A DNA stretch of 47,208 bases from Candidatus Polarisedimenticolaceae bacterium (GCA_041568335.1 JBFFZZ010000001.1:1-47208); one strand, 5' to 3'; counted from the first letter of the stretch, positions 1,295 through 44,828 are shown. Program-made: numbers and translations. The notes: generated from the letters alone by a model not told the origin.

Positions 1295-1390
1295 TCAATC
1301 GGACGCGACACAGGTGTCGCCAGCCGCCCCCGCGACGCCGTAGCCGTCGCGGTCGACGTCCTCGCAGGTGTCGCAGACGTCGCCGACACC
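238..1390 (-). repeat. Coding tandem array with an exact 150-bp period and 8 phased units (50 aa, 6 Cys per unit).
   Basis: The anchor ccg[ta]a[ag/cc/tt].. (complement of the GYG/NYG codons) starts at 288, 438, 588, 738, 888, 1038, 1188 and 1338. All spacings are exactly 150 nt. Unit consensus: DC.DTC.D.DGDGYG..GGAGNTC...DCDD.I..C..DC..D.D.D..I. Confidence 0.9.
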
Positions 1391-7191: not shown

Positions 7192-7309
7192 CCGGGAAAT
7201 ATACCGCGCCCCAAGGCGGTCTGGCCTGGACGGACGGCGGCCCCGGGCCGGCCCGGCTGCTAAACTGACGGCATCCTTCGTTCCCGAAAATCCACTGGAG
7301 CTCAGCCCG

Positions 7310-28198: not shown

Positions 28199-30139
28199 AT
28201 GCGAGGCTCCGCGCATGCCGCGTCGGCGGTGGTGGTGGTCCTGATCGCCGGGCTATGGAACGCCACCGCGTTTGCGCAGGACGACGAAGACTGTCTCGCC
28301 TGCCATGACGAGATCGACCTCTTCGAGGGTTTCGATGACCCGGCCCGCCTGGTCGTCAGCGCGAAGCGGTACTTCGCGTCGTTGCACGCCGAGATGGGCT
28401 TGGCATGCATCGATTGTCACGTCGATCTGACCGGTCTCGGCGACTACCCGCACGCCGATTCTCTGGCGCCCGTCGATTGCGGCGTCTGTCATGCCGACAC
28501 GCAGGAGCTGTTCACCGGGAGCATGCACGGGTACGCTCTCGCGCGCGGTGACACCCAGGCGCCGACCTGCGCGAGCTGTCACGGCACTCACGACATCCGC
28601 TCCGCCTCGGACCCTGAATCGCCGACGCACGAGAGCCGCCTGCACGAAATATGCGCCTCGTGCCATGGGTCGGCGGGACGACTGACAAGAGAGATCGTCA
28701 GGTTTCCGGAAACCGTCGCCAGCTATGCCGCCTCGGTCCACGGACCATCCGACGGGGGCGTGGGCGCCGCCACCTGCGACGATTGCCACCATGTCCACGA
28801 GGTTCGTGGCGTCGCCGATCCGCAATCGCGAATCCACCGTGCAAACCTGTCGGCGACGTGTGGTGAATGCCACGACGACATCCGCATCGAGTACGAGCAG
28901 TCGATCCACGGCCGGGCGCTGCTGGCCGGGTTGCACGACAGCCCGACCTGCACGGACTGTCACGGCGAACACCTGATCCTGTCCCCTGGCGATCCCGATT
29001 CACTGGCCCACGCCAGCCGTCAAGCAACCGAGTCTTGCGGGAACTGCCACGACGACCCGGTGATCATCGCCAAGTACGGTCTGCGCGGCGACGTCGTCGG
29101 CTCGTACGTCGACAGCTATCATGGCTGGACGACTCGGCGCGGGTACGACCGCTCGGCGACGTGCGTGAGCTGTCATTCGGCGCATCGGGTGCTCCCGAGC
29201 ACGGACCCGCGGTCCACGGTGCACGCAGCCAACATCGTGGGGACATGTGGTCAGTGCCACAAGCTCGTCGACGAGGCCTTTGCAGCCAGCTACACGCACG
29301 AAAAGCTCTCGATCACGGCCAACCCGATCAATCGCTGGATCCGCGGAATCTACTGGGTCCTGATCACGGTCGTCATCGGTGGGATGGCCCTGCACAACCT
29401 GGTGATCCTCAACTTCCACGCCGTTCGTAAGAGGCGGGAGCTGGAAGCAGTCCAGACCGTGCGGCGCCTCGACGCATACCAGCTCGCGCAGCACGGCCTG
29501 ATGGCGCTCTCCTTCATCGTCCTCGCGATCACCGGCTTCGCCCTCAGGTACCCCGATGCCGGGTGGGTCGCCCTGCTGACGACGCTCGGCTTGGACGAAC
29601 CCTTGCGTGCCAACGTTCATCGCATCGCCGGCGTCGTGATGGTGATCGTCGCGGTCGTCCATGTGCTTTACGTCCTTCTCGTGCGGCGTGGACGGCGAGA
29701 GTTCCGGGCGATGGTCCCGTCTCGACGGGATTTTCGCGAGGCTGTGGACAACCTGCGGTACCACACCTGGGTACGTGACCGGCCTGCCGATTTCGGGCGC
29801 TACGACTACACGCAGAAGGCCGAGTACTGGGCCATCGTCTGGGGTACGGCGTTGATGGCGGTGACCGGCGCCGTGCTGTGGTTTCCCGCCCTGGCGGTGA
29901 AGCTCGTCCCGGCCTGGGTGGTGACCGCGTCGCAGACGATCCACTTCTACGAAGCCTGGCTCGCCGCCCTGGCGATCGTCGTCTGGCACTTCTTCTTCGT
30001 GCTGTTCCACCCCGATGTCTACCCGATGAGCTGGACCTGGCTTTCCGGGAAGGTGACCCGACGCTCGGTGGAACGGCACCACCCGCGTTGGTATCGCGAG
30101 GAGCTTGCGGACAAGCCGGCCGTGGCGGACGACGATTGA
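28199..30139 (+). CDS. Fusion of a periplasmic 11-haem c-type cytochrome with a C-terminal 5-TM cytochrome b domain (FdnI/HydC-type). CbcL-like inner-membrane quinol/quinone oxidoreductase candidate.
   Basis: Signal peptide, then 11 CxxCH motifs: CLACH, CIDCH, CGVCH, CASCH, CASCH, CDDCH, CGECH, CTDCH, CGNCH, CVSCH, CGQCH. These are followed by His-bearing TM helices (GGMALHNLVILNF, IAGVVMVIVAVVHVLYVLL, AALAIVVWHFFFVLFH). Confidence 0.8.
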   Translation: MRGSAHAASAVVVVLIAGLWNATAFAQDDEDCLACHDEIDLFEGFDDPARLVVSAKRYFASLHAEMGLACIDCHVDLTGLGDYPHADSLAPVDCGVCHADTQELFTGSMHGYALARGDTQAPTCASCHGTHDIRSASDPESPTHESRLHEICASCHGSAGRLTREIVRFPETVASYAASVHGPSDGGVGAATCDDCHHVHEVRGVADPQSRIHRANLSATCGECHDDIRIEYEQSIHGRALLAGLHDSPTCTDCHGEHLILSPGDPDSLAHASRQATESCGNCHDDPVIIAKYGLRGDVVGSYVDSYHGWTTRRGYDRSATCVSCHSAHRVLPSTDPRSTVHAANIVGTCGQCHKLVDEAFAASYTHEKLSITANPINRWIRGIYWVLITVVIGGMALHNLVILNFHAVRKRRELEAVQTVRRLDAYQLAQHGLMALSFIVLAITGFALRYPDAGWVALLTTLGLDEPLRANVHRIAGVVMVIVAVVHVLYVLLVRRGRREFRAMVPSRRDFREAVDNLRYHTWVRDRPADFGRYDYTQKAEYWAIVWGTALMAVTGAVLWFPALAVKLVPAWVVTASQTIHFYEAWLAALAIVVWHFFFVLFHPDVYPMSWTWLSGKVTRRSVERHHPRWYREELADKPAVADDD

Positions 30140-30143
30140 TCCG

Positions 30144-32054
30144 CTACCCGGCGAGCAGGTTTTCCAGCACCGCCCGTGACGCCTCCGCGTTGTGGTGGGC
30201 ACCGGCTTCGTCGAGGATCGCAAGGACCCCTCTCGCACGTTCGACCCACGCGTCGTCGCCCGACTGCTCGATACGTTCCAGCACCTGCCGGCGTAACGCG
30301 GCCAGCGCCGCGACGTTGTCGAGATGCATCGCCTCGTACGATCCGTCGTCCTCATGGCAGTCGGCGCAGGTCCCCAGTGCGACCTCTTGCGTGTGCGGCT
30401 CCGACGGATAGTGGCAGTCCTCGCAAGCCACGAGATCGGCCATGAAGTCCGGTTCGACATCGAAGGGATCCAACACCGGCAGCGTCGCCGATATCAGCCC
30501 CTGCTGGACCGCATGACAGCTGTCGCAGCCGTCGTTGACGGCGTTGGCCCCGCCGGAATGACACTGGCTGCAAAGCACGGCGTCGTGCGTTCCGTTCAGC
30601 GGCATCGCGTGCTCGAACTCACCGGTGTGGTAGGAGATCCGATCGCCGTCCCCATCGGGGATCAGGAAAGTGTGACACGATTCGCATTTGTCTGTGACCG
30701 AATCGCCGTACTGATTCACGTGCCGGTTGTCGTGGCAGCGAAAACAGCCGTCCGAGTACATGTGGCCGATGTTGTCGGGGTAGGTGGTCCAGTCGACCCG
30801 CATCTCGGAGAAGATGTTGCCGGAGTAGACCTCGCGGGTGGTGTCGATCGCCTGGTAGATCGAGGCGCGCCGCGACTCCCAGAGCTCCGGATAGTTTTCC
30901 CGGTAGAAGCCCGAGATACGCTCACCGATGCGGGCGAGGGCCTCATCGTCGGGGAGGTAGGGCGGGAGGATAGCCGCAACGGCCTCGCGTTTGATGAACG
31001 GCAACGTGCGGTCGATGCGTCCGTTGGTGATGGCTTGATCGATCGCTTCCTGCGGCGACAGGAACTCGTGGGCCGGACGGTTGTGACAGTCCATGCAGTC
31101 GATCTGGCGACGCTCGCCCCGCGGCGGCGGATCGGAGCTGGGCTTGCCGTCGGAGCGGTAGATCTGCGTTTCTCCGGTAGCATCGGTCCATGTGATCCAC
31201 TGGATATCTTGGAGTCTCTCGTCGGTGGCGATGTACTCGATCCGCGCGGTCAAAGCCATGTGGCTGTGGATACCCGAAGCACGGCCGAGAAACTCGTCGC
31301 CTCCCCCGGTCTTCAACAGCAGCACCACGGTTCGATCCGTGTTGTCCTCATCGGACGCATAGTGCGGGAACTCCCGCAGCTGTGAGCCGAAAAACTTTTG
31401 TGGCCAGTGGCATTCCTCACAGGTCTCCCGTGCCGGGCGAAGCTCGGTGATCGCCGGGGGGATCGGTCTGGGATAGGTCTCCCGAACGGTCGCTAGGACC
31501 TGGCGCAGTCCGGAGACCTTCGACTTGACGAACCAGCTCGCACCACTCCCGATGTGGCATTCGGCGCAGGGGACGCGGGCGTGGGACGACCGTTGGTAGG
31601 TCACCGCCTCGGGCTTCATGACGGTATGGCAGGTCGTCGCGCAGAACTCGGTCGAGTCGGTGAAGTGATAGCCGTGGTACCCGGTGACCGCGGTGACCGG
31701 TAGCAGCGCGAACAGTCCCAGACCGAGGTACTTCGCCACGCGCAGTTGCAGCGGGTCGCTGAAGTCGGGCCGGGGAAGCAAGCGCAGCTTTCGCTCGGGA
31801 TCCAGCCGGCGTCGGCGCCAGCTGCGGATCAGGATCCCGACGATCATCAGCGCAACACCGAACGTCAGGATTCCGGGGAGCACCAGATAGCCGACGATGT
31901 CGACATAGGGGTTCGGTACGGGCGAGACCAGACTGAACAGGCCGAAGGTGATCAGCAGGATCAACGCGACGGCGGCGAGCAACGTTCCCGCCAGCGTCAA
32001 CCAGTTGGTCCAGAGCGGTCGTGTAATCAGCGGATGTTTCGGGAGTTCACCCAT
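30144..32054 (-). CDS. Inner-membrane multihaem cytochrome with 3 N-terminal TM helices and a NapC/NirT-like first haem region (ImcH-like). It has 9 CxxCH motifs and 1 CX3CH motif.
   Basis: TM helices LTLAGTLLAAVALILLITFGLF, IVGYLVLPGILTFGVALMIVGILI, YLGLGLFALLPVTAVTGY. Haem motifs: CATTCH (CX3CH), CAECH, CEECH, CMDCH, CFRCH, CESCH, CSQCH, CDSCH, CEDCH, CADCH. SD AAGGAA lies before the ATG at 32054. Confidence 0.7.
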   Translation of the reverse strand: MGELPKHPLITRPLWTNWLTLAGTLLAAVALILLITFGLFSLVSPVPNPYVDIVGYLVLPGILTFGVALMIVGILIRSWRRRRLDPERKLRLLPRPDFSDPLQLRVAKYLGLGLFALLPVTAVTGYHGYHFTDSTEFCATTCHTVMKPEAVTYQRSSHARVPCAECHIGSGASWFVKSKVSGLRQVLATVRETYPRPIPPAITELRPARETCEECHWPQKFFGSQLREFPHYASDEDNTDRTVVLLLKTGGGDEFLGRASGIHSHMALTARIEYIATDERLQDIQWITWTDATGETQIYRSDGKPSSDPPPRGERRQIDCMDCHNRPAHEFLSPQEAIDQAITNGRIDRTLPFIKREAVAAILPPYLPDDEALARIGERISGFYRENYPELWESRRASIYQAIDTTREVYSGNIFSEMRVDWTTYPDNIGHMYSDGCFRCHDNRHVNQYGDSVTDKCESCHTFLIPDGDGDRISYHTGEFEHAMPLNGTHDAVLCSQCHSGGANAVNDGCDSCHAVQQGLISATLPVLDPFDVEPDFMADLVACEDCHYPSEPHTQEVALGTCADCHEDDGSYEAMHLDNVAALAALRRQVLERIEQSGDDAWVERARGVLAILDEAGAHHNAEASRAVLENLLAG

Positions 32055-32163: not shown

Positions 32164-32505
32164 TTACCGGGTGTTCCTGAGCTCGACGAGCCAGGCCGCG
32201 ATCGCCTTCAGTTCCTCTTCGGTCCCCTTGAACTCCTTCTTGTGATCCTTGCCGTCGAGCTGGGTTTTGCGGCTGACGAATTGCTGGATCCAAGCCGCTT
32301 CCCGAGCCTCGTTGGGTAGGTCGGGTCCCTTCATCTTCTCCGACTTGACTTTGGCGACGATGTCCGCCTGTGGGACGGAGTGACACAGGTCGCATTTCTG
32401 CGCCGTGAAGGCCGCCAGCCCATCGCCCTCCGCGGCGACCGGGCCGCCGAAGATGAGGAGAATCACGGCTGTGGAACCAACGAGAAAGTGTGTCTTGGCT
32501 GACAT
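32164..32505 (-). CDS. Small monohaem class-I-like cytochrome c (signal/anchor sequence, Lys-rich).
   Basis: 113 aa with hydrophobic N-terminus LVGSTAVILLIFGGPVAA, a single CDLCH, and a candidate distal Met in KMKGPDL. SD GGAGG lies 8 nt upstream. Confidence 0.8.
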   Translation of the reverse strand: MSAKTHFLVGSTAVILLIFGGPVAAEGDGLAAFTAQKCDLCHSVPQADIVAKVKSEKMKGPDLPNEAREAAWIQQFVSRKTQLDGKDHKKEFKGTEEELKAIAAWLVELRNTR

Positions 32506-32613: not shown

Positions 32614-34281
32614 TTAGGGCGCCGAGGAGAAACCACGGATCTTCAGCGCCAGTCCGATCAACACGGCGACGATGATGATGAGTGCGAGGGCCAGCCCCTT
32701 GCGGCGGTATTGAAGCTCCTCGAGCGCCGCGGCCCCGCTCTCCAGCGCCGCGCGGGCATGCTCCAGCCCTTCCGCGTGGGCTTTCATGAAATCGCCGTCC
32801 GGTGAAGGATCGAACGTGTGCACCAGGACCTGGAGATCGATCTGTGAATCGACCGTGCGATCGACGTATGCGCTCGCCTCGCGCGTCTCGACCCCGCCTC
32901 GACGCGCCACCAGCAGTGTCCGTTCGGCCTGTCCCGCCAACACGGTCAGCTCGCGGATCTTGTCCACGAACATGGACCCACCGAGACGGGGATCTCCCGA
33001 TGGATGGTGACAGGTTCCACAACGCCGCACGGCGGCACGAACCCTGCCGCTGCCGTTCGGGTTGTCGTACTCGTAGTAGCTCTTGCCGATGCGGAACTTC
33101 GAGTACAACCGCTCGAACTCGGGGCGCAGAACCGTCTCACTCTCGGATGCCCCCAGTCGATGGTTCGGAAGCTGGCGTGCACGATCGACGAGCCAGTCGA
33201 ACAGCTCGTCGTCCGCGATCCCGGCCTCCCCCGCCTCGGAGAGCAGGTCGGTGAAGACCTCGGCGTAGTTCTCGCGGCTCGCCAGCGGCTCGACCGACTC
33301 GCCGCCGTTCAGGTCGATCGACTCGTGACAGAACTCGCACGGGGATTGGGGCAGCCCCGAGAACATCGCCAGTGTCGGTCGGACGATGGCGTGGTTGTCG
33401 TGGCAGCTGGCGCATTCGACGAAGCTGCGGATCTGCAGATCGGCTTGTGGAGATTCGTGGCACGCCGCGCATCCCTCGTCCCCGGCGTCGGCCATGAGCT
33501 CGTTGTGCACCTCGAAGGCCTCGTGCTTGGGGCCCGACCGGAAGAGCTCCGCTTCCCGCCCATGGCACTGTCCGCAGACGAAGTCGACGGAATCGAGTCC
33601 CGGTGGCGCTGCGCCGTGATTGCCGTGACAGTCGTTGCACGTCGGTGCGCTGAGGTCCTCGCGGTCCAGCAGCGCGGCGGCATGGACACTGGTGCGCCAG
33701 CGAGCGTAGACATCGGTCGGGATCGGAAGACCCCCGGGACCCTTTCGTCCGGCCATCAGCTGCTGGTCGCCGTGGCAGACATTGCAGGTCTCCGCGACAC
33801 GGGTCGGGTGGACGCTCGAGTCGGGGCTCGAGACTTTGCGCGTCGAGTGCACCGTGTGGCAGTCCGTGCAGACGGCAACCTCCATGTCTCCGCGTGCCAG
33901 CGCTATGCCGTGCTGGCTGGTCCAGTACTCGCTCTCCTGATCGACGCGCGGTGCGGGGTTGAAGCGGCGCATGAGGACGGGATTCGAGTGGCAACGACCG
34001 CACAGGGCCGGGATCTCGTTTCGCGCAGGCGCACCGATAAACGTCTCGTCCTTCGCGTCGAGTTCCTCGGCAAGCTCGGGAGCGGGGTTGCCGCCATGGC
34101 AGTCGTGGCACGAGAAGCCGGCCTCGGCGTGGATATCCAACGCGTAGCCCTGCACGACAGCCGGGTCGGCTCCGAAGAGCTCCTCGTTCGCGTGGCACAA
34201 GGTGCACGAGGTCTCCTCCACCCCGCCCGGTGTCACGGGCAAGATCGCAAGCAAGGCCAGCGCAACGGTGGGTGCCTTCAT
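32614..34281 (-). CDS. 11-haem c-type cytochrome with a C-terminal membrane anchor. Candidate third subunit of the Rieske/cyt b complex.
   Basis: Signal peptide, then CTLCH, CHDCH, CGRCH, CTDCH, CNVCH, CNDCH, CGQCH, CAACH, CASCH, CEFCH, CGTCH. C-terminal [22 protein letters not shown]. The start ATG overlaps the cyt b stop (ATGA at 34278-34281). Confidence 0.85.
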
Positions 34282-35441
34282 CGCTCACCTCGGTCACGCG
34301 GTCGCGTGATCCAGCCGAAGCCCGCCAGTGCCAGAATCGCCCCGCCGACAAGGAACACGGGAACCGGGGACCGGTAACCCCAGGCCGTCATGACAACCAT
34401 GTACACAACGACAACCGCACCGATGATCGTGAACCCCGGACTCTTGCCCTTGCGGGCCAAGCCACGGTCGAGGAACGGCACGAGCAGGAGGACGAGTGCC
34501 CCGATCCCGAACCCCATGATGGGGATGGCCTCATACTCGATGCCCAGGATTTCACCGCCAGGCACGAGTTTCAACGTCTCGAACATGAACATGAAGTACC
34601 ACTCGGGCCGGATGTCCTGGTAAGCCGGTGCGAACGGATCGGCCTTGACGCCCAGCTCCCAGGGGAACAGCGCCGCCACGGCAGCGAGCACCCCGAGCGC
34701 CAGCACCCAACCGAACAGGTCTCGCAGGGCGAAATCGGGGAAGAACTTCATGGGGCGGTTGCGCTTCGACCGTTGTTCGCTCGCGGGCGGGACGCTCATC
34801 CCCTGAACCTGGACCAGCACGAGGTGCAGACCCAGCAAGATCGTCGTTATCGCCGGTAGGATCGCCACGTGCCAGCCGTAGAACCTCGACAGCGTTCCGC
34901 CGGTCACGCGTTCTCCGCCGCGCAGGAACTCGAGCAGCCACTCACCGACGAACGGGACCGACCCGGCGATATCGGTGCCGACCAAGGTGGCGAAGTACGC
35001 GAGTTGGTTCCATGGCAACAGGTAGCCGGAGAAGCCGAACGCCATCACCAGGAACAGCAGGACGCAGCCGCTGATCCAGGTCATCTCACGCGGCTTGCGG
35101 TAGGCCTTGACGAAGAAGACGGTGCCCAGGTGGAGGAAGGCGAAGAAGACCATCAGGTTCGCGGCCCACGAATGGACCGAGCGAATCAGCCAACCGAACG
35201 GGACCGTGGTCATGATGAACTCGACGGACTCGAACGCCTCTTCGGCGGAAGGCCGGTAGTACAGCATCAACAGGATCCCGGTCACGACCTGCACGATGAA
35301 GAAGAACAGGGTCATGCCGCCGAGGTAGTAGAAGACGGTGTAACGGTGCTGTGGAACGGTCTTGTGCCGGGCAAACTCGGCGAGCCTGTCCAGCGCGACA
35401 CGCTGTTGCAACCACGCCCCGATCGTCTCGACGGGCTTCAC
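34278..35441 (-). CDS. Cytochrome b of a Rieske/cyt b complex (b6-like N-terminal part fused to a subunit-IV-like part).
   Basis: Helix B haem ligands are H-x13-H ([17 protein letters not shown]). Helix D ligands are H-x14-H ([17 protein letters not shown], the b6-type spacing). The Qo-site motif PEWYF is present. GTG start with GAGGA upstream. Confidence 0.92.
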
Positions 35442-35444
35442 GGC

Positions 35445-35912
35445 TCAGGTCCTCGAGATGACGATCTGCGCCGGTTGCCCGGACCCGCGGGCGACGAGGT
35501 CGACGCGAAACGGCGCTAGCGGCCGTGGGGGCGGCCCGGCAACCTGGTGGCCCTGGAGGTTGTACTGGCCGTTGTGGCAGTTGCACCAGATGCGTCGCTT
35601 GTCCCGCCGATACTCGACGATACAGTCGAGGTGCGTGCAGGTGCCGGCGAAGGCGCGGAAATCGCCGTCGGCGACCCGGATCACGATCACGGGCTCGCTC
35701 CCGAAGCGGACGATCTTGTATCCCTTGTCGAGCAGCTCCGGATCGTTGGTAAACCCCGCCTCGACCTGGTTGGTCCCGGAATCGGGTATCTCCGGCGGAC
35801 TGACGAAGCGCAGTACCGGGTAGGCGATCGAGGCGAACAGCGCGCCGAATGATGTCGCCAAGAACCAGTTGAGGAAACTTCGACGGTCGCGTGGTCTTTG
35901 AGACTGGCTCAC
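35445..35912 (-). CDS. Rieske [2Fe-2S] protein with a Tat signal.
   Basis: Twin-arginine RDRRSFLNW followed by a TM helix. Cluster boxes CTHLDC and CNCHNG. The start is uncertain. The track's TTG at 35966 lies inside the T-tract of the upstream terminator and upstream of the only SD. The GTG at 35912 overlaps the stop of a short SD-preceded uORF (see findings). Confidence 0.85.
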   Translation of the reverse strand: MSQSQRPRDRRSFLNWFLATSFGALFASIAYPVLRFVSPPEIPDSGTNQVEAGFTNDPELLDKGYKIVRFGSEPVIVIRVADGDFRAFAGTCTHLDCIVEYRRDKRRIWCNCHNGQYNLQGHQVAGPPPRPLAPFRVDLVARGSGQPAQIVISRT

Positions 35913-35961
35913 GGTTCTGGGCGTCTTCCGAGAATCACAAAACGCATCATACCCTCCTCTG

Positions 35962-35997
35962 GACAAACAAAGGGACCGGCGTCATCCGCCGGTCCCT
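35962..35997 (-). terminator. Strong intrinsic-terminator-like hairpin (11-bp perfect GC-rich stem, 5-nt loop) followed by TTTGTTTGT on the minus strand, directly after the 990-aa cytochrome gene.
   Basis: Plus strand: AGGGACCGGCG-tcatc-CGCCGGTCCCT (35971-35997), preceded by gacaaacaa. This gives the U-rich tail on the minus-strand transcript. Confidence 0.7.
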
Positions 35998-36022
35998 TCC
36001 CAGTGACACACACCCACCCGCC

Positions 36023-38995
36023 TTACCTTTCGATGGCGCGGCGAGTCTTCGACGGCTTGACTTGCCAGCTGCTGAGCGTGTTCGGCCGATCTCGGTTGAA
36101 CTCCTGGATCCGCATGCCCGGATTGAGCGAGACCAGCGCATCCCGCGACGCGATCAGCGCGCCGTTGGCGAAAAACGGATTGTGCACGCCGTGGCTGCCG
36201 TCGTTGTGGACCAGGGCCAGGTTCCAGCCGGACTTGAGGAGATCGTCGTGCGCGAACCCGGCCAGGGAACCCAGGACGGTCATCGACCCGTCGAGCACGT
36301 CGATATCCGGGATCCGGTGGGGTCCGGAGACCGACGTGTCGGTGAACGTCACCGTCAGGGCCTGACGTCCGCGGGACTCGCCGAAATGAACTTCCGCGAC
36401 ATCCGCCGCGTCGACGATCGTGGCATCCCCGTTGAGGTCGATCGTGTTCCCGGCGGCGATCAGGTCCTCGAACAGCCGAACGTAGGCGTCCTCCACCAGA
36501 TCCTCGACGATATCCGCCAGATGATCGATCGCCCCCTGCACGTCGTCGGGGTCGAGGTGCGGGCTGTGACAATCGGTACAGATGTTGCGGTCGGCGTAGA
36601 ACGTGTGGTTCGTTCCGCCACCGTTGTACGCGAGGACGTCGGGAGGAGGTGTCGACTCCATGTGGCAGGTGACGCAAACATCTTCGATGCCGGCGTGGCC
36701 ACCCGGAGAATCGACCGCGACGAAGTAGGCGTTCTGGCCCGCGATCATGTCGGCCTGAGCCGATCCATGAGGCGCGCGCGCCTTCTCGGAAGCCGAAAAC
36801 GTGTCCCAGATGCCGTCGTTGCGTTCCCCGCGCCGCGAGTTGTGGCAGGTCATGCAGATGGCCCCGCGCCCGGCGTCGGTGAACGTGAAGCCGGCGATCA
36901 GCGGCGGCGTGTCGCCGCTGATCCGCACCGTCGCGTTCGGATCGGATCCGCTCGTCGTGCCACTGGCGTGCGGATCGTGGCACGTGGCGCAGGTTTGCGG
37001 GTGCGCCTCGTCCTCGGTCCACGTGACCGTGACGCTGGCCAGCGGATCGGTCATCGGGTCGTCGTCGAGCAGAACCGGCAACCACTCGAGGAAGCCGTTG
37101 GCCGTGTGACAGCGCGAGCAGCTACCGCTGGTACTCCTTTCGATCGCCAGCTCGTAGTTGGCGTGCGGGCTGAGCTGCCACTGCTGGAAACGGGCGTGCC
37201 GCAGCGGCTCGCCGTGGCACGTCGCGCAGACATCGGCGGAGAGGTCGATGCGCGGCTCACCCACCGGTCCGGCGAACCCGTGAGCGAGCGAACTCTGCGG
37301 ACCGTGACAGTTCTCGCACTGGACGTTCGCCTTGCGCGCGGTTTGCGGCGTCTGCGCGAGCGCGTTGCTCCAGTTGTCCGGCTGCGGGTTACCCAACATC
37401 GTGAGGAACGTGCTGTAATCGTCGGCTTCGTCGATGCCGAGATTGTCGTCCTCGGGGTTGTAGCCCACGGTATGACAGCTGAAGCATTGGGTTCCCCAGT
37501 AGGCGCTGGAGTTGAAGTTGTCGGTGAAGATCTCGGCGTGACCGGTCTGGGCCCAGTCGGTGAACTTGTCCGGCGCGAACATGTCGTTGTGGCAGAACGT
37601 ACATGCGGTATCCGCGACCGGTCTGCCGTCCATGTCCTCGTCGACGATCACGCCACGCCACTCCCCGGCATAGACCTCCAGCGTCGCCGGGTTCCCCGCG
37701 CCCTCGGCCGCGTCCGCGAGCTCGAGCTCGTAGAGGCCTGGAACGTCGGGGGTGAAGTGGGGCCAGCGCGTCGTCGCGTCATTGAGCGTGGCCGCCGAGC
37801 CGGCCGGCGCATTCAGCGTCCAATCGTAGGCCGTATGCTCCTTGGCCTGAACCAGCACCGGTACGTTGATCGGCACGTTGCGCAAGCCGGTGGACCACTC
37901 CCACGGCAGATCCGTGTGGATCTCGACCTCGTCGGTAAAGATACCCAGATCGGTGTCGACCTCGACCTCGAGCACAACAAGCACCGTTTCCTCCAGGGAC
38001 CATGGGTTGATCCCGACGACCTGCATCCGATCCTGCAGGCCTCCGAAGGACCCGTGGGGAGGGATCGTGACGTTGGGCGGGAGCTGGTCCTGGGTCACGA
38101 TGGGTTCCTCTAGGTGGTCGATCAGCCCCGTCTTGTAGGCGCCCCCGTCCGCGAGCGTCACCGTGGCGGTATCCGTGTTGCCGTTGGCGATGGCGACGGT
38201 CTCACCGTAGGTCTGCGTCCAGGTGATCGAGTTGATCGTCGCCGTCGGTGGTGCGGTGATGTCCACCGTCGCCGTGACGATCCCGCCGGGGAACATATTC
38301 CCGGATACGCTCGCCTCGACCATGACGGGGACCGTCGGCAACAGCGCAATGTCGAGATTGCTGATCGGCGTCCCGGCCGTCACCGTCACGCTCTGCGCCT
38401 GAGTGGTGTAACCCGCGAACGAGTACGCAAACGAGTAGGTTCCGGGATTCAGCTGTCCCGAATAAGTGCCCGACGCGTTGGTCGTTGCGAAGTTGGATCC
38501 CTGAACCGTGACCGTCACGCCGGGGATCGGGTTGCCCGTCAGGCTGTCCGTGACGATCCCGGAGACGGTGACCAGGTTCGAAACGACCGCAGATCCCGTC
38601 AGGTAGGCGTTGAATCCACCGCTGCCGGAATCGCCGCCGATCTCCGCATAGTAGGTCCCGGCAGCCGGTAGGGTGAACACATGGGTCAAGTTGCCCATGC
38701 CCAACCAGCTGATGGAGCGCGTCATTCCCGGCACGACCATGCCGCCCGAATCGCGAATCACGGCGGTCGGGACGAGTGTCGAACCCGGCGCGGCCTGCAC
38801 GGTGAGCGTCACCGTTTCGCCGCCCGCAGCCAGGAAACGGCCCTGAACCAAGTCGACACCCGCGGTGTCGATCGTTCCCGAAAATCGGTCGCCGAGCCCG
38901 GTGTCGACGATCGTCTGTGAAAAAGTCATGGGGCTGATCAAGAGCAGCACAAGCGCACTCAGCCCTGCAGTCAACCAAACTCCTCCGTTCTTCAT
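36023..38995 (-). CDS. 990-aa secreted 9-haem c-type cytochrome with about 330 aa of N-terminal non-haem beta-sandwich domains (pre-peptidase-C-terminal-like and carboxypeptidase-regulatory-like).
   Basis: Signal peptide WLTAGLSALVLLLISPMTFSQ. A CarboxypepD_reg-like segment VSGIVTDSLTGNPIPGVTVTVQGSNFATTNASGTYSGQLNPGTYSFAYSFAGY. Haem motifs: CTFCH, CFSCH, CENCH, CATCH, CSRCH, CATCH, CMTCH, CVTCH, CTDCH. SD GGGAGG lies 5 nt before the ATG. Confidence 0.85.
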   Translation of the reverse strand: MKNGGVWLTAGLSALVLLLISPMTFSQTIVDTGLGDRFSGTIDTAGVDLVQGRFLAAGGETVTLTVQAAPGSTLVPTAVIRDSGGMVVPGMTRSISWLGMGNLTHVFTLPAAGTYYAEIGGDSGSGGFNAYLTGSAVVSNLVTVSGIVTDSLTGNPIPGVTVTVQGSNFATTNASGTYSGQLNPGTYSFAYSFAGYTTQAQSVTVTAGTPISNLDIALLPTVPVMVEASVSGNMFPGGIVTATVDITAPPTATINSITWTQTYGETVAIANGNTDTATVTLADGGAYKTGLIDHLEEPIVTQDQLPPNVTIPPHGSFGGLQDRMQVVGINPWSLEETVLVVLEVEVDTDLGIFTDEVEIHTDLPWEWSTGLRNVPINVPVLVQAKEHTAYDWTLNAPAGSAATLNDATTRWPHFTPDVPGLYELELADAAEGAGNPATLEVYAGEWRGVIVDEDMDGRPVADTACTFCHNDMFAPDKFTDWAQTGHAEIFTDNFNSSAYWGTQCFSCHTVGYNPEDDNLGIDEADDYSTFLTMLGNPQPDNWSNALAQTPQTARKANVQCENCHGPQSSLAHGFAGPVGEPRIDLSADVCATCHGEPLRHARFQQWQLSPHANYELAIERSTSGSCSRCHTANGFLEWLPVLLDDDPMTDPLASVTVTWTEDEAHPQTCATCHDPHASGTTSGSDPNATVRISGDTPPLIAGFTFTDAGRGAICMTCHNSRRGERNDGIWDTFSASEKARAPHGSAQADMIAGQNAYFVAVDSPGGHAGIEDVCVTCHMESTPPPDVLAYNGGGTNHTFYADRNICTDCHSPHLDPDDVQGAIDHLADIVEDLVEDAYVRLFEDLIAAGNTIDLNGDATIVDAADVAEVHFGESRGRQALTVTFTDTSVSGPHRIPDIDVLDGSMTVLGSLAGFAHDDLLKSGWNLALVHNDGSHGVHNPFFANGALIASRDALVSLNPGMRIQEFNRDRPNTLSSWQVKPSKTRRAIER

Positions 38996-39050
38996 CGTTG
39001 CCTCCCGGCCGGGGCCAGCCGGGGCGGCTGCCCCGTTCCTTACGCAAGGA

Positions 39051-39079
39051 ATTCTAGGGATTTTTTTGGCTCTTGATCA
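39051..39079 (-). promoter_or_regulatory. Candidate sigma-70-type promoter for the 990-aa cytochrome gene (TGATCA-N17-TAGAAT with an upstream A-tract).
   Basis: The minus strand reads tgatca-agagccaaaaaaatccc-tagaat. The -10 is 5/6 to consensus and the -35 is weak. It is followed by a GC hairpin (GGGGCAGCCGCCCC) in the leader. Confidence 0.25.
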
Positions 39080-39267
39080 CTGCGGAAACCCGTCACGGAG
39101 GCGCGCCAGACATAAGGGTATCCCCGTGCATCGCAGTCGCTTAGCGTGTGTGACAATAACCTACCGACAGCAACGGGTGCTCCGCGCTCGGCTCGGTAAC
39201 CGGACACAACAAACAAAGTCAACGCGAGTCTCGGCGCACCTTGAGCTTTCATGTGGAGGGTAGCCGG

Positions 39268-39873
39268 ATGAACACGAAACGATTGGCGATCGGATGCGCG
39301 GCGGTGCTGTTCCTGGCGGGACTTCTGTGTCCTGCTGCCGCCGAGAAAGGCGACAAGTTTGTGAGGTTCGGCGTCCTCTACAGCATGCCGACGGACGACT
39401 TCACGATGGGGACGCAGACGACCGAGCTGGACGAATCGGTCGGGTTTCAGGCCTCGTTCGAGTACCAGCTTTCCGATCTCATCGGAATCGAGCCGGGGGT
39501 CAGCTCGGGAAGCTACGACCTGACGGTCGTGGAGCCCGGGTTCGCCGACGTGAACGGCGACACGCAGCTGTTCGCCGTCACGACGAACCTCAACTTTCAC
39601 TTCCGGAAGGACAGCGGGCTGGATCTCTCGGTCGGGCCGACAATCGGGTACGCCTTCTGGGATGACATCACGTTGTCCGGGTTCGCGACGCCGGTGACGA
39701 CCGACGACGAGTTCCTGTTCGGCGCGAGCATCGCGCTGGCCTATCCCTTCGGCGACGGTGGCTGGGGCTTCAACGCGGGCCTGAGCTACCTCGCCCTGGA
39801 CGTCACGCCGCCCGGTGGCGCCATCGGGGTGAGCCCGGTCCAGGGGAAGGTCGGCCTCAGCTACGCCTTCTGA
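39268..39873 (+). CDS. Small 8-10-strand outer-membrane beta-barrel protein (OmpW/OprG-like size class).
   Basis: 201 aa with signal peptide LAIGCAAVLFLAGLLCPAAA, alternating-hydrophobic strands and the C-terminal signature GLSYAF (terminal Phe). SD GGAGGG lies 7 nt before the ATG at 39268. Confidence 0.75.
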   Translation: MNTKRLAIGCAAVLFLAGLLCPAAAEKGDKFVRFGVLYSMPTDDFTMGTQTTELDESVGFQASFEYQLSDLIGIEPGVSSGSYDLTVVEPGFADVNGDTQLFAVTTNLNFHFRKDSGLDLSVGPTIGYAFWDDITLSGFATPVTTDDEFLFGASIALAYPFGDGGWGFNAGLSYLALDVTPPGGAIGVSPVQGKVGLSYAF

Positions 39874-39901
39874 CTTTCCGCACAGGCGCTTCCAGACCAA
39901 T

Positions 39902-39936
39902 GGAGCCGCTCCCTCGGGAGCGGCTCCGCTTTATTT
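39902..39936 (+). terminator. Rho-independent terminator (11-bp perfect stem, 4-nt loop, T-rich tail) between convergent genes.
   Basis: GGAGCCGCTCC-ctcg-GGAGCGGCTCC followed by gcTTTATTT. It lies 28 nt after the OMP stop codon. Confidence 0.8.
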
Positions 39937-39953
39937 GGCCCTGTCGGCGGAAT

Positions 39954-42005
39954 CTAGAAGCGCAGCCCCGCACGAACCACAACGTGGTTGCCGTCATAGT
40001 CGAGCAGGTCATTCACGTCGTCGTAGTCAAAGTGACGGTAGGCACCGCCAACGCGCAATCCGCTTTCGAACGTGTAGCTGACACCGACCTCGGAATCCAT
40101 GTACTCCTGCATGATGACCAGGTTGTTGAGCACCGACGGCGTCGGCAACGTGAGGTCGATCACGTTGTTGAATCCGTCCGCCTCGATGCTCGAGGCCATC
40201 ACGTAGCAGTGCCAGGCGTCGCGCCGGTAGTCCAGCCGACCGAGGATCTGCGAATTGTCGTTGAGGAAGTCGGAAGATCCGGGTGCGACCGCACCAAAAC
40301 CCGCCGTATCGAACAGGATCGCGGTCGACCCGTCGACCTCGGTGTCGGTGTAACGCAGCAGGTAGCTCACGTTGTCTCCCGCCGCGTGTGTCCAGTCGAC
40401 CGACCAGGCCGTCCCGTCGACCGTCGAGTTGTTGTCGATCGCCGGAGGGACCGGGCGGATGTTCGGTGAAATGTTCTCGTTGTCCCAGTTGCGGTAGGTC
40501 GCGTTGAAACGCATGCCCTGGCGCGGGGTGACCGTGGCGCGAAACCGCGTCTGCGTCTTCATGAAGTGCGATACGTTGGTGAACGCCATGTCCATTTCAC
40601 CATCCTCGAAATCTGCGGACAGTCGCAACCAGCGCGCCGGTCTTGCGGTCAATCCCAGGATCAGCGTGTCGTCGTTGTCCGAGTCGAAGTTGGTGTCCCG
40701 GACACCGCCGTAGCCGCTGCGTTCGAGACTGCGCGACATCGTGCGGTAGCCGGCGCGAACGCGGACCTGCCGGTGCGGCTGGTAGTCCAGCAAAGCGGTG
40801 ATCGTGTCGACCTCCTGGTCGAACCGGGTCACGCTTCCGGGTGTCGCGTCGCCATCGAGGTCCTCGAACGTGCCGTCGCCGTCGAGATCCCGATCGAGCG
40901 TCCCGTCCAGCTCGCGGTTGTAGCTCTTGTAGCTGAGGTGCGCCGTCAGCGGAGCCGCGATGCGAATGGCGGCGTCGAATTCGACGATCATCGTGTCGCC
41001 ATCGAGGCGTGCCGTCGAGATCCCGGTGTCGGCGACGCACACGTCGCCGGCCGTGATCGCATCACAGGTGGCGTCGTTGCTGCACGTGGCACCGCTGATC
41101 GCGCAGGTCCCGCCGAACTCGAGTCCGTTGAACGCGATCCCGAGTTGCTCGACGGTGACGTCGGACGTGATCTCCTCGTCCCCGAGCAGTGTACCCGCGG
41201 CGGATAGCGTCAAGGCGACTCGTTTCGTCACCGGTGCCTGCAGGATCAACGTGGTCCAATCCTGCTCGGTATTGTCCCGTTGCATCCAGTGGTAGCTGTC
41301 GAGCTGCGTCGCGTTGGAAAGATCAATGCCCAGATCACCCTCGGTTTCCTGGACGATGTTGTTGGTGTAGTCGTTGAGCGCCTGGCGAAAGACCAGGTTG
41401 ACCTTGCCCAGCTTGGCGTCGACCCCGACCGTCAGGCCCTCGCTTTCGGCATCCAGAGGGGCCTCGAGCCGGAACACATCGCGGCTGACGTCTTTCATGA
41501 AGAGCGAATCTCCACTTCGTCGGTTGTTGCGGTACTGCACGACGGCGGACACCTTTTCTGTTGCGTGGATCCTCAGGCTCAACAGGTCGCGCCGCCGCTC
41601 GGCGTCCCAGGCCGCTCCATCCTCGTTGTCGACCAGTTCAAAAAGGTTGTACATGTAGTCCTGTTTGGTGGAGGTGAAGCGCAGATCCCAACGGTCCTTC
41701 TTGCCCAGTTTGAATGCGCTTCGCTGGTAGGGCTCGGAGCCGCCGAAGCCTTCGAGCTCGATGCGCGCGAAGTCGACCCAGTCGCTCGACTCGTTTAGCC
41801 ACCCGACATTCAACCGATCGACGTAGGTTCCCGACGATTGTCCGTCGAAGTCTTCGTCGTACTTCCGCTGCTCGCCATCGACGTTGACGTTGCGATGGGC
41901 CAGTTCGATCTCACCCTCGATCTGGCCTTCGCCGTCCGCGTGAGTCGTCGGGAGCATGAGCAGGAGACCGGCGAACACGGCTAGGTAGGCGGTGTATCGC
42001 ATCAT
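39954..42005 (-). CDS. 683-aa outer-membrane beta-barrel. Candidate MtrB/PioB-like sheath of a porin-cytochrome conduit.
   Basis: Signal peptide MMRYTAYLAVFAGLLLMLPTTHA. Long runs of alternating beta-strand pattern with Y/R/D-rich turns. The C-terminus is VVRAGLRF. The start ATG (42005-42003) overlaps the TGA of the decahaem gene (ATGA). The size matches MtrB/PioB-type barrels. Confidence 0.65.
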   Translation of the reverse strand: MMRYTAYLAVFAGLLLMLPTTHADGEGQIEGEIELAHRNVNVDGEQRKYDEDFDGQSSGTYVDRLNVGWLNESSDWVDFARIELEGFGGSEPYQRSAFKLGKKDRWDLRFTSTKQDYMYNLFELVDNEDGAAWDAERRRDLLSLRIHATEKVSAVVQYRNNRRSGDSLFMKDVSRDVFRLEAPLDAESEGLTVGVDAKLGKVNLVFRQALNDYTNNIVQETEGDLGIDLSNATQLDSYHWMQRDNTEQDWTTLILQAPVTKRVALTLSAAGTLLGDEEITSDVTVEQLGIAFNGLEFGGTCAISGATCSNDATCDAITAGDVCVADTGISTARLDGDTMIVEFDAAIRIAAPLTAHLSYKSYNRELDGTLDRDLDGDGTFEDLDGDATPGSVTRFDQEVDTITALLDYQPHRQVRVRAGYRTMSRSLERSGYGGVRDTNFDSDNDDTLILGLTARPARWLRLSADFEDGEMDMAFTNVSHFMKTQTRFRATVTPRQGMRFNATYRNWDNENISPNIRPVPPAIDNNSTVDGTAWSVDWTHAAGDNVSYLLRYTDTEVDGSTAILFDTAGFGAVAPGSSDFLNDNSQILGRLDYRRDAWHCYVMASSIEADGFNNVIDLTLPTPSVLNNLVIMQEYMDSEVGVSYTFESGLRVGGAYRHFDYDDVNDLLDYDGNHVVVRAGLRF

Positions 42006-42829
42006 TCCTCCAGGAAGTACGGGCTCGTGTTGGAGCCGTGGATGGCCGTGTGGCAGGCGGTGCACTTCTCGTTCAGGAACCGCGGCGCGCTGTGCCAGAC
42101 GGGTGTGACACTCGCGGAGTGACACTGATAACAAAGGTTGACTTGCGTCTCGTAGGTCAACAGGTGGCGGTTGGTGGAGCCGTGGACCGTGTGACAGGTC
42201 GAGCAACCGTCCATCAAGGCGACGTCGTGCGCGTAGACGTATGGGGCCATCTTCTCGGTGTGACAGTCGCCACAGGTCTGGTTCGCCAGGGTCGTGTTGG
42301 TCCGCAGGGAATCGGTACCATGGGGGTTGTGACAACCGGTGCAATCCTCGGCCGGATGCGAACGGGGCATCCCGAACTGCGCCACGATCCCCTGGTGGCA
42401 ATCGGCACAGAGTTCCGGAGGCCGCTTGGTGAGCATCTGATCCGCGGCCGCGTGCGGGTCATGGCAATCCTGGCAGGTGACATCGGCCAGTCGGTGCAAT
42501 GCCCCGGCGGCGCGGAAGTGCGAGGCCTGCTCGGTGTGGCAGTCCAGGCACTGTTGCGAGGCCTCGCGGGGGGGCAGCAGCGCGGGGCGAATGATCGAGT
42601 CAAGCTCGCCTCCGCTGTCCATGTGCTCCTGGCCGTTGCCGTGGCATGCGCTGCACGAGGTCTCGTGAACCCAGCCCTTCGCTGTGGCGTGCGGGGTCTT
42701 GGCAAACTCGGCCACGGTTTCCTCATGGCAGGCAGCACACTCCTCCGCGGGTGGCCCGGTGTCCTCGGCCGGCGTCGACGCCGAGAACACCAGGAACAGA
42801 AACAAGAGAACGAAATAAGTTCGTCGCAT
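42002..42829 (-). CDS. Periplasmic decahaem c-type cytochrome of the MtrA/DmsE/PioA/MtoA type.
   Basis: 275 aa with signal peptide FVLLFLFLVFSASTPA and 10 CxxCH motifs: CAACH, CSACH, CLDCH, CQDCH, CADCH, CTGCH, CGDCH, CSTCH, CYQCH, CTACH. Local patterns parallel Shewanella MtrA as I remember it: CTGCHNPHG vs CSDCHNPHG, C..CH.EK..P...H, and the terminal CTACHTAIHGSN vs CLNCHSQVHGSN. The ATG at 42829 follows AGAGG. Confidence 0.8.
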   Translation of the reverse strand: MRRTYFVLLFLFLVFSASTPAEDTGPPAEECAACHEETVAEFAKTPHATAKGWVHETSCSACHGNGQEHMDSGGELDSIIRPALLPPREASQQCLDCHTEQASHFRAAGALHRLADVTCQDCHDPHAAADQMLTKRPPELCADCHQGIVAQFGMPRSHPAEDCTGCHNPHGTDSLRTNTTLANQTCGDCHTEKMAPYVYAHDVALMDGCSTCHTVHGSTNRHLLTYETQVNLCYQCHSASVTPVWHSAPRFLNEKCTACHTAIHGSNTSPYFLEE

Positions 42830-42977
42830 GGGCAACCTCTTGAAGCGCCTGGTGGCGCAGGGTGACCTTATCGCGTCCAAGAAAGCCACGTCATACGGGG
42901 AAACCGTCATGGACGCGGGCCCTAGCATCTAATAAACGAGGGACGGTTTTCAAGACGGAACAATGAATTTTGCGATC

Positions 42978-44666: not shown

Positions 44667-44828
44667 CGGTTCCTTCCCCGGGAAAACGCCGGAAGCGCCA
44701 TCCTACCAGGGTCTCGACCCCGTACCCCGGCGAAAATCGGGGCTATCCGTGCAACCTTTTTAACGGAATCGGCGTCCTAGTGAGCATGGAGGGGGCAATC
44801 CGACCCCGACCGACATTTCGAGGTGCTT

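Follow-up and report, generated by a model that had tools for sequence, protein, structure and literature searches.

The stretch of DNA analyzed here, called the window below, covers 47,208 nucleotides (nt) of Candidatus Polarisedimenticolaceae bacterium (GCA_041568335.1 JBFFZZ010000001.1:1-47208). On its minus strand, between positions 32614 and 35966, three tightly packed open reading frames (ORFs) encode a Rieske protein, a cytochrome b, and a cytochrome c with 11 haem-binding motifs (MHC11). We infer from the sequences that the three genes encode a single membrane complex of the bc1/b6f superfamily, a menaquinol:multihaem-cytochrome c oxidoreductase. In this complex, MHC11 is probably the integral c subunit of the Rieske/cytochrome b quinol oxidase and would stand in the position of cytochrome c1 or f, because the synteny, the overlap of start and stop codons, natural fusions between cytochrome b and MHC11, and the operons of a 9-haem sister family all point to it.

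The junctions between the three genes are very short. The Rieske gene ends with TGA, which is followed by GCC and then by the GTG of cytochrome b (a 3-nt gap), and the tetranucleotide ATGA at 34278–34281 is common to the stop codon of cytochrome b and the start codon of MHC11. The original prediction had described this gene order, the gap, and the overlap, and each is found in its place.

The MHC11 gene (32614..34281, minus strand) encodes an undecahaem cytochrome c of 555 amino acids (aa) with 11 CxxCH motifs, the proposed c1/f-equivalent subunit; the length, the exact motif count, and the C-terminal transmembrane (TM) anchor agree with what had been claimed. The protein has an N-terminal signal-like helix (residues 3–21), a conserved C-terminal helical domain, and a strongly hydrophobic C-terminal TM helix (residues 525–554). 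In an alignment of 21 homologs (51%–74% identity; alignment numbering is the true numbering minus 1), all 11 haem motifs, nine further His residues, and Met176 are invariant, Met104 and Met306 are nearly so, and the C-terminal TM helix is conserved. Since the 11 motifs are invariant in 21 homologs, they do not occur by chance. The MHC11 sequence profile gave no match among all chains of the PDB, and the C-terminal 236 aa gave none in Pfam with E up to 10. With the AlphaFold2 model of MHC11, the best Foldseek hit in the PDB has an E value of 0.38 (HDH, NrfA, and HAO on top), which is not significant.

A search for the MHC11 family in 5.8 billion proteins returned more than 5,900 matches. The best 120 of these are nearly all full-length, with 51%–76% identity, and come mostly from metagenome-assembled genomes (MAGs) of Acidobacteriota/Thermoanaerobaculia; when they carry a name, it is “cytochrome c3 family protein” or “hypothetical.” A scan with one genome per species yielded at least 568 MHC11 relatives, the majority in Thermoanaerobaculia or other Acidobacteriota and a minority in MAGs labeled Methylomirabilota, Planctomycetota, Gemmatimonadota, Krumholzibacteriia, Eiseniibacteriota, Binatia, and others. 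Eighty loci were kept for the comparison of neighborhoods, where synteny was assessed by tblastn with the window proteins. A Rieske gene is found in 76 of them and a cytochrome b gene in 79 (the remainder are cut by contig ends). In all 76 loci with enough upstream DNA, the order is Rieske, cytochrome b, MHC11 on the same strand (76/76), and the 4-nt overlap between the cytochrome b stop and the MHC11 start (ATGA or GTGA) is present in 48 loci. The placement of the 11-haem cytochrome at the c1/f position, as originally proposed, thus gains strong support from the synteny and the overlaps, as well as from the fusions and the sister operons described below.

Cytochrome b and MHC11 form one reading frame in 11 loci. 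Nine of these, each a species-level genome, are credible fusions with conserved junctions (L021, L025, L040, L043, L054, L056, L062, L063, and L081). They keep helices G and H of cytochrome b and the signal-peptide-like segment in frame, and the predicted topology is a workable one, with eight TM helices (and a cytoplasmic end), the signal helix as TM9, a periplasmic haem domain, and the C-terminal TM helix. The two other cases, L001 (P0113, 893 aa) and L049, were rejected as fusions: their pre-junction sequence is scrambled, looks out of frame, and is not conserved, and they are probably assembly frameshifts. In a rough neighbor-joining tree of the related loci (without support values), six of the nine fusions form one clade and the other three are nearby; with such clustering, the fusion must have been passed on as species diverged.

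A profile search of 1.84 billion cluster representatives brought up two independent fused representatives, one of cytochrome b with an 11-haem protein (P0126) and one with a 9-haem protein (P0252). In this search, the full-length 11-haem type makes up only a handful of clusters at 50% identity. There is a sister family of ∼420–430 aa, with nine haems, a signal peptide, and a C-terminal TM helix, that matches the N-terminal 270–300 residues of MHC11. It is much more diverse than the 11-haem type and likewise unannotated (P0136–P0269; loci L082–L087), and the three 9-haem relatives that were sampled all occur in Rieske–cytochrome b–cytochrome operons (3/3).

The cytochrome b (34278..35441, minus strand; 387 aa, eight TM helices) is unsplit, with a b6-like N-terminal half (PF00033 at 2.9e-52) fused to a subunit-IV-like C-terminal half (PF00032 at 4.4e-09). 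The haem ligands are His90/His104 (H-x13-H) and His191/His206 (H-x14-H), and the Qo motif PEWY is at residue 279; the protein has, therefore, the two His pairs in helices B and D and the PxWY motif of the superfamily, and these traits, like the fused subunit-IV-like part, had been correctly recognized at the outset. Of the 80 relatives, 76 retain the PEWY motif and the x13 pair, and 79 retain the x14 pair. The N-terminal half is closest to cytochrome b6 (6rqf and 1q90; best E 5e-58, about 1e-57), and the full-length protein aligns with long bc1-type cytochromes b in the PDB search. In NCBIfam, the b6 model scores 228 bits and the model of Geobacter ExtP 225.5 bits, both under their cut-offs. 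The Cys that binds haem c_i in b6 (fyCLGG; Cys35 in spinach and Chlamydomonas) is a Tyr in the window protein (fyYLGG), and no Cys is present at that position in the 76 relatives with alignment coverage there. The cytochrome b combines b6-type His spacing with an unsplit, eight-helix, c_i-less architecture. These traits (a long protein, the GG kept, the Cys lost, and a large conserved operon) would fit group G/G′ of Dibrova et al. (PMC5600118), and they would also fit groups A1/A2 of Baymann et al. (PMC3509893).

The Rieske ORF exists as predicted, and its maximal extent is 35445–35966 on the minus strand (173 aa from TTG 35966), but that start is doubtful. The TTG at 35966 falls within the T-tract of a terminator, and in the two closest relatives (L088 and L089) the Rieske start lies ∼10 codons ahead of the RR motif, so that the start is probably GTG 35912. 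From there, the Rieske [2Fe-2S] subunit (35445..35912, minus strand) has 155 aa, with a twin-arginine translocation (Tat) signal (motif RDRRSFLNW) and a TM anchor; it matches PF00355 at E 6.7e-13 and, weakly, PF25471 (PetC TM anchor). The cluster boxes are CTHLDC and CNCHNGQY (the “GY” type). Together with the disulfide cysteines and the Tat/TM anchor, all of them present, they place the protein in the bc1/b6f superfamily. The nearest solved Rieske domain is that of Kuenenia stuttgartiensis (9rk4_A, E 9e-13), followed by PetC of b6f.

Box II reads CNCH[NG]G.Y/F in nearly all of the 77 Rieske homologs recovered. The site of the potential-raising Ser is a Gly in every box II variant recovered from the related loci, and the window protein keeps the Tyr. 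In mutants, the Rieske potential falls by ∼130 mV for the Ser and ∼65 mV for the Tyr, the loss of the Ser having been measured in yeast (PMC12954380), and GY-type Rieske proteins lie at 120–160 mV versus 300–350 mV for the SY type (Baymann et al., PMC3509893). The cluster of the window protein is expected, from its boxes, at about +120 to +160 mV, which would make the complex a lower-potential enzyme. Lower-potential Rieske/cytochrome b enzymes are typical of menaquinol oxidizers.

Between the stop codon of the preceding gene (for an MtrC-like cytochrome) and the Rieske gene, there is an intrinsic-terminator-like hairpin (35964–35999, minus strand), a 13-bp GC-rich stem followed by UUUGUUUG. 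Its centroid structure folds at −27.4 kcal/mol (z = −3.58), and none of 200 shuffled sequences is as stable (0/200). A scan for consensus promoters and terminators gave no promoter and did not list this hairpin, which was seen by reading and confirmed by the folding. With a terminator at that place, the Rieske operon is probably its own transcription unit.

A strong GGAGG Shine–Dalgarno sequence at 35957–35953 is followed by ATGATG and a short ORF of 12–13 codons, MMRFVILGRRPEP (window 35909–35957, minus strand). The TGA stop of this ORF overlaps the likely Rieske start in GTGA (35912–35909), and the ORF could be a coupling leader for the Rieske gene. Neither L088 nor L089 conserves it, and the Rieske start there has its own ribosome-binding site.

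The order of genes along the minus strand is MtrA-like, porin candidate, MtrC-like, Rieske, cytochrome b, MHC11, a monohaem cytochrome c, and ImcH-like. Pfam and NCBIfam scans covered the nine genes of this cluster. Mtr-type and ImcH/CbcL-type genes had been announced downstream of the operon. This holds for the ImcH-like gene, 3′ of the operon; the CbcL-like gene is convergent, on the plus strand, and the Mtr-like genes are on the 5′ side, behind the terminator.

The ImcH-like inner-membrane cytochrome (30144..32054, minus strand) has three N-terminal TM helices, a NapC/NirT-type region, and nine CxxCH motifs with one CxxxCH (partial matches to PF03264 and TIGR03153). The CbcL-like protein (28199..30139, plus strand) consists of an 11-haem periplasmic domain fused to a dihaem cytochrome b of the FdnI/HydC type (PF01292 at 2.2e-19; TIGR01583). 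The N-terminal part of MHC11, with the first nine or ten haems, is paralogous to the haem domain of this CbcL-like protein (BLASTP 29% identity over 318 columns, E 3e-22). One kind of haem wire is attached to two unrelated quinol-oxidizing membrane modules. In four related loci, a giant ORF with 20–21 CxxCH motifs lies directly 3′ of the 11-haem gene (L002 6871–9930, L005 2482–5460, L012 7872–10850, and L016 7509–10148). These ORFs match the CbcL-like protein of the window over its full length with 31%–33% identity and are giant CbcL-type cytochromes.

On the other side of the operon, the MtrC-like secreted cytochrome (36023..38995, minus strand; 990 aa, nine CxxCH motifs) contains a CarboxypepD_reg domain (PF13620) and matches PF22113 with 47.5 bits for a cut-off of 30, which marks it as an extracellular cytochrome of the MtrC/OmcA type. 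Upstream of it, a gene for a small outer-membrane protein (39241–39873) is on the opposite strand, between the MtrC-like gene and the porin candidate. The putative outer-membrane porin (39954..42005, minus strand; 683 aa from ATG 42005) has a signal peptide and ends in ...AGLRF; it matches no Pfam or NCBIfam family. Its ATG overlaps the stop codon of the MtrA-like gene (ATGA), and its weak tblastn relatives adjoin MtrA-like genes in L030, L049, L055, and L079. The MtrA/DmsE-like periplasmic decahaem cytochrome (42002..42829, minus strand; 275 aa from ATG 42829, the ORF extending to 42928) has 10 CxxCH motifs and scores 184.1 bits with TIGR03508, just under the cut-off of 192.2.

The closest relatives differ from the window mainly on this 5′ side. 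In L088 (76% identity), the order is THAP4-like, alanine racemase, UPF0158, and then Rieske–cytochrome b–11-haem–ImcH-like. The window shares these flanks and carries between UPF0158 and the Rieske gene a block of ∼6.9 kb with the Mtr-like genes and the terminator (36023–42928). In L089 (70% identity), the same slot holds, on the other strand, genes for a 2,539-aa multihaem protein, a 363-aa cytochrome, and a Calx-beta protein, and the operon is followed on the 3′ side by monohaem c, ImcH-like, and CbcL-like genes. The ImcH-like protein of the window has 78% identity with that of L088 and 72% with that of L089. Taken together, these comparisons indicate a conserved inner-membrane set and a variable outer “output” module; the position 5′ of the Rieske gene seems to be a place where this “output module” changes from locus to locus. 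In the same flank of the window, a DUF4097 (“toastrack”) gene with repeated DTGSGD motifs (44823–45935, plus strand) lies between the THAP4-like and alanine racemase genes; it is absent at the corresponding place in L088.

Among the 80 loci, MtrA-like genes (>100 bits) occur within 6 kb in 11–12 and are scattered over the neighbor-joining tree. In L030, L049, L055, and L079, MtrA and porin genes immediately precede the operon on its own strand. Of the 49 loci flanked by 5 kb or more on each side, 26 contain a further ORF with at least four CxxCH motifs. In many loci, the operon is isolated, with housekeeping genes around it (for example, L082–L084). The association with MtrA and other multihaem genes is repeated and, by a rough estimate rather than a computed statistic, well above random placement, but it is not obligatory. 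The link of the complex to extracellular electron transfer recurs and is plausible, on circumstantial grounds. The wiring into a periplasm-spanning haem chain that had been proposed for this locus can be kept in that form: the recurring neighbors speak for it, whereas the separate transcription unit and the insertion or deletion relative to L088 do not.

The following mechanism is suggested by these features. Menaquinol would be oxidized at the Qo site (PEWY). One electron would return to the quinone pool via haems b_L and b_H in a proton-motive Q cycle, and the other would pass to the GY-type Rieske cluster (at about +120 to +160 mV), whose mobile head would hand it to the undecahaem cytochrome. 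MHC11, held by its C-terminal anchor like c1 or f, could carry the electron through its eleven haems several nanometers into the periplasm. There are nine invariant His outside the motifs for eleven haems, as well as the three conserved Met, and, speculatively, one to three haems may be His/Met-ligated; such haems, of higher potential, might offer a downhill entry point for the Rieske electron. The likely acceptors in this genome would be the MtrA-like decahaem cytochrome in its porin and the MtrC-like protein. Extracellular (Fe/Mn) respiration would then gain, through the complex, an energy-conserving route of higher potential next to those through the ImcH-like and CbcL-like quinol oxidases, in analogy with the potential-tuned menaquinol branches of Geobacter (PMC13591261). 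In relatives without Mtr-like neighbors, the module probably serves as a general complex III.

For an outward role in extracellular respiration in this genome, we would put the chances at a little under even. Several points weigh against the proposed complex or against this role. Bis-His multihaem cytochromes are usually of low potential. The step from the Rieske cluster (+120–160 mV) to MHC11 would be uphill unless some haems are His/Met-ligated, and only the three conserved Met hint at this. The terminator hairpin sets the Mtr-like genes apart from the Rieske operon. The closest relative, L088, has no MtrA-like, porin, or MtrC-like gene, and UPF0158 stands there directly before the Rieske gene (L088 7015–7236). 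About half of the fully flanked loci (23/49) lack any other multihaem gene within 6 kb. The AlphaFold2 model of MHC11 (from a 21-row alignment) is of low confidence, with a mean predicted local distance difference test score (pLDDT) of 64.7. That of an artificial fusion of cytochrome b and MHC11 (pLDDT 56.6, predicted TM-score [pTM] 0.35) is unusable for docking or for the distance from the Rieske cluster to the haems. Finally, another complex III or another c-type partner may exist outside the window. The isolated operons (those of L082–L084 among housekeeping genes included), the bare locus of L088, and the terminator would all suit the same complex working as a general complex III that feeds any periplasmic reductase or oxidase (for nitrite, N2O, or O2) via small cytochromes, with the neighbors for extracellular electron transfer being incidental or one outlet among others. 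The spread of the family over at least 568 loci in several phyla suits it too. We regard this general role as possible, though rather doubtful. An MtrA-like gene is found within 6 kb in roughly 15%–20% of the loci, in separate clades, which is ∼25-fold over expectation by the author's rough estimate for a gene present a few times per genome. The operon keeps its ImcH-like and CbcL-like neighbors in the nearest relatives, and an 11-haem wire exceeds what is needed for reducing a soluble carrier.

The complex might also run in reverse, with electrons from Fe(II), cathodes, or partner cells entering through the MtrAB-like (MtoAB-like) conduit and a monohaem cytochrome c to MHC11, the Rieske protein, and quinone, driven by the proton-motive force. 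Reverse operation is also the proposed role of the PetI bc1 complex of Acidithiobacillus. The monohaem cytochrome c in question (32164..32505, minus strand; 113 aa, class-I-like, motif CDLCH, a signal peptide, no C-terminal anchor, weak PF13442) is encoded 108 nt 3′ of the MHC11 gene, with its own GGAGG ribosome-binding site. It is present in only ∼10 of the 80 related loci, and in six of these it does not follow MHC11 but lies beside the MtrA-like gene in divergent orientation, a pairing reminiscent of MtoD beside MtoAB. For the similar Mtr-PetAB cluster of Zixibacteria RBG-1, such reverse operation has been proposed, with Fe(II) oxidation as the favored reading (Castelle et al. 2013, PMC3903129). 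Unlike RBG-1, the window encodes an MtrC-like extracellular cytochrome (PF22113). It also carries look-alikes of the quinol oxidases ImcH and CbcL, a typical trait of metal reducers, and reduction of Fe and Mn oxides has been reported for a cultured member of the class, Thermoanaerobaculum aquaticum. The direction of electron flow is not fixed by sequence, but on these grounds reverse flow appears improbable. The same monohaem protein bears on the composition of the complex. The original prediction had stated that there is no c1- or f-like monohaem subunit; indeed, no match to cytochrome f or c1 is found in the Pfam and NCBIfam scans of the nine genes, but the monohaem cytochrome had been overlooked. 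One could suppose that MHC11 is a separate, co-transcribed membrane cytochrome and that the Rieske electron goes to this protein, encoded so close by with a ribosome-binding site of its own, or to a c1 or dihaem c elsewhere, since the genome beyond the window is outside the comparison. Against this speak the nine fusions and the further fused representatives, the order kept in every informative locus with its start/stop overlap, and the absence of the monohaem gene from ∼70 of the 80 loci, so that a separate MHC11 seems most improbable. As a substitute for c1, the monohaem cytochrome was rejected, having neither a membrane anchor nor conserved synteny; it belongs to the Mtr-type module and is a neighbor rather than a core subunit.

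Rieske/cytochrome b complexes with multihaem partners are known elsewhere, as the original prediction said of some Deltaproteobacteria, anammox bacteria, and others; they occur in Geobacter (Cbc6/Ext), in anammox bacteria, and in Zixibacteria RBG-1. The Cbc6 or extKLMNOPQS cluster of Geobacter sulfurreducens (GSU2930–2937) encodes the Rieske protein ExtO, the cytochrome b proteins ExtP and ExtQ, the 10-haem ExtN, and the 12-haem ExtM (PMC2825233, PMC5877670), with a porin-like ExtI adjoining and a physiological role still unassigned (PMC13591261). Like the window, this cluster of a metal reducer joins a b6-like Rieske/cytochrome b core to large multihaem cytochromes, with a porin-like gene next to it. 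In Geobacter, however, cytochrome b is split (ExtP and ExtQ) and the multihaem genes precede the Rieske gene, whereas in the window cytochrome b is fused, with eight TM helices, and a single multihaem gene follows it. The selenoprotein and rhodanese genes of the Ext cluster have no counterpart in the window cluster. On the ExtP model, the 225.5 bits of the window cytochrome b are to be compared with an equivalog cut-off of 290, and neither MHC11 nor five 9-haem relatives match the ExtN model NF040967 at the thresholds used. Membership in the Ext/Cbc6 family was rejected on these scores.

In the Rieske/cytochrome b complexes of Kuenenia stuttgartiensis (Kuste4569–4574 and Kustd1480–1485), a hexa- or octahaem cytochrome c with a TM anchor stands where b6f has cytochrome f (PMC12954380). 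The window has the same arrangement, a b6-like core with a TM-anchored multihaem c in place of cytochrome f (here 11 CxxCH motifs and a C-terminal TM helix). The anammox complexes have a split b6 with a five-TM subunit IV and the Cys for haem c_n. They also include an NAD(P) oxidoreductase subunit on the cytoplasmic side, and one of them an octahaem enzyme like HAO. The window cluster has none of these features, and Pfam detected no NAD(P) oxidoreductase or FeS domain among its nine genes. The anammox Rieske proteins are at +303 and +335 mV, with the pairs Ser/Tyr in Kuste4569 and Ser/Phe in Kustd1480, versus Gly/Tyr in the window (PMC12954380). Fusions of cytochrome b or subunit IV to a c-type cytochrome are known from Kuste3096–3097 of Kuenenia and often from gram-positive bacteria (PMC12954380). 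Those have one or two haems; the fusions of cytochrome b with multihaem cytochromes found here are the same kind of event, with 9–11 haems.

The Zixibacteria RBG-1 cluster contains MtrA and MtrB homologs and the PetAB complex (cytochrome b/Rieske), along with two cytochromes of the monohaem type and several multihaem ones that are periplasmic or in the inner membrane (Castelle et al. 2013, PMC3903129). In gene content, the neighborhood is the same overall as in the window (the multihaem proteins being compared by description only). RBG-1 is reported to be without extracellular MtrC/OmcA-type cytochromes and is read as an Fe(II) oxidizer, whereas the window has an MtrC-like protein. With the canonical b6f and bc1 complexes, the window shares the Rieske boxes, the four His of the b haems, PEWY, and a c subunit with a signal peptide and a single C-terminal TM helix. 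As in b6f, the His spacing is x13/x14, but cytochrome b is unsplit with eight TM helices (split in b6f, with seven in total), and there is neither a c_i/c_n Cys nor a cytochrome f. As in bc1, cytochrome b is unsplit with eight TM helices, but the spacing is of the b6 type and c1 is absent. The c subunit has eleven haems instead of the one of c1 or f, with no homology to either. ImcH and CbcL of Geobacter are likewise proposed to pass menaquinol electrons on to periplasmic cytochromes, in branches that are specific for the potential (PMC13591261), and their look-alikes flank the operon. Their membrane modules are unrelated (NapC/NirT-type and FdnI/HydC-type) and without a Rieske protein.

The porin–cytochrome clusters of Acidobacteriota/Thermoanaerobaculia have already been described (bioRxiv 10.1101/2020.10.01.322446), and the proposal that Rieske proteins early on had multihaem cytochromes as their acceptors is credited to Dibrova et al. 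In the literature searched, the coverage of which is incomplete so that a prior mention is possible, we found no description of a Rieske–cytochrome b–undecahaem operon in Acidobacteriota. Multihaem partners of Rieske/cytochrome b are already established at the genomic level; what is uncharacterized is the family of undecahaem subunits on this known core.

Two other genes of the window may be mentioned. At 5278–7326 (minus strand), far from the cluster, there is a gene for a 682-aa protein with multihaem cytochrome c motifs (PF14522 and PF09699) and C-terminal TPR repeats. The gene at 1295–4909 (minus strand) encodes a 1,204-aa protein with a metallophosphoesterase like purple acid phosphatase and five thrombospondin type 3 repeats.

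The coupling of quinol oxidation to extracellular electron transfer, with the amount of energy conserved in it, has been worked out mainly in Shewanella (CymA) and in Geobacter (ImcH, CbcL, and CbcBA). A Rieske/cytochrome b core with its own 11-haem wire would be a different solution, present in at least several hundred species-level genomes of phyla abundant in soils and sediments. The natural fusions are an argument for counting the wire as part of the enzyme, and the three genes are a defined target for expression, redox titration, and cryo-EM. Even if the complex is merely a general complex III, it offers a useful annotation for proteins now called “cytochrome c3 family protein” or “hypothetical,” and the operon could serve as a marker for surveying energy-conserving metal respiration in Acidobacteriota. 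It is conceivable, although we hold it with considerable reserve, that the anchored cytochromes with 9–11 haems define a large, uncharacterized class of proton-motive complex III. In this class, the Q cycle would be joined directly to multihaem networks of the periplasm and the cell exterior, and exchangeable outer-membrane output modules would be inserted next to the operon. If so, many Acidobacteriota and members of other uncultured phyla would conserve extra energy during respiration with metal oxides or electrodes, or drive reverse flow during Fe(II) oxidation, by a mechanism not demonstrated in Shewanella or Geobacter.

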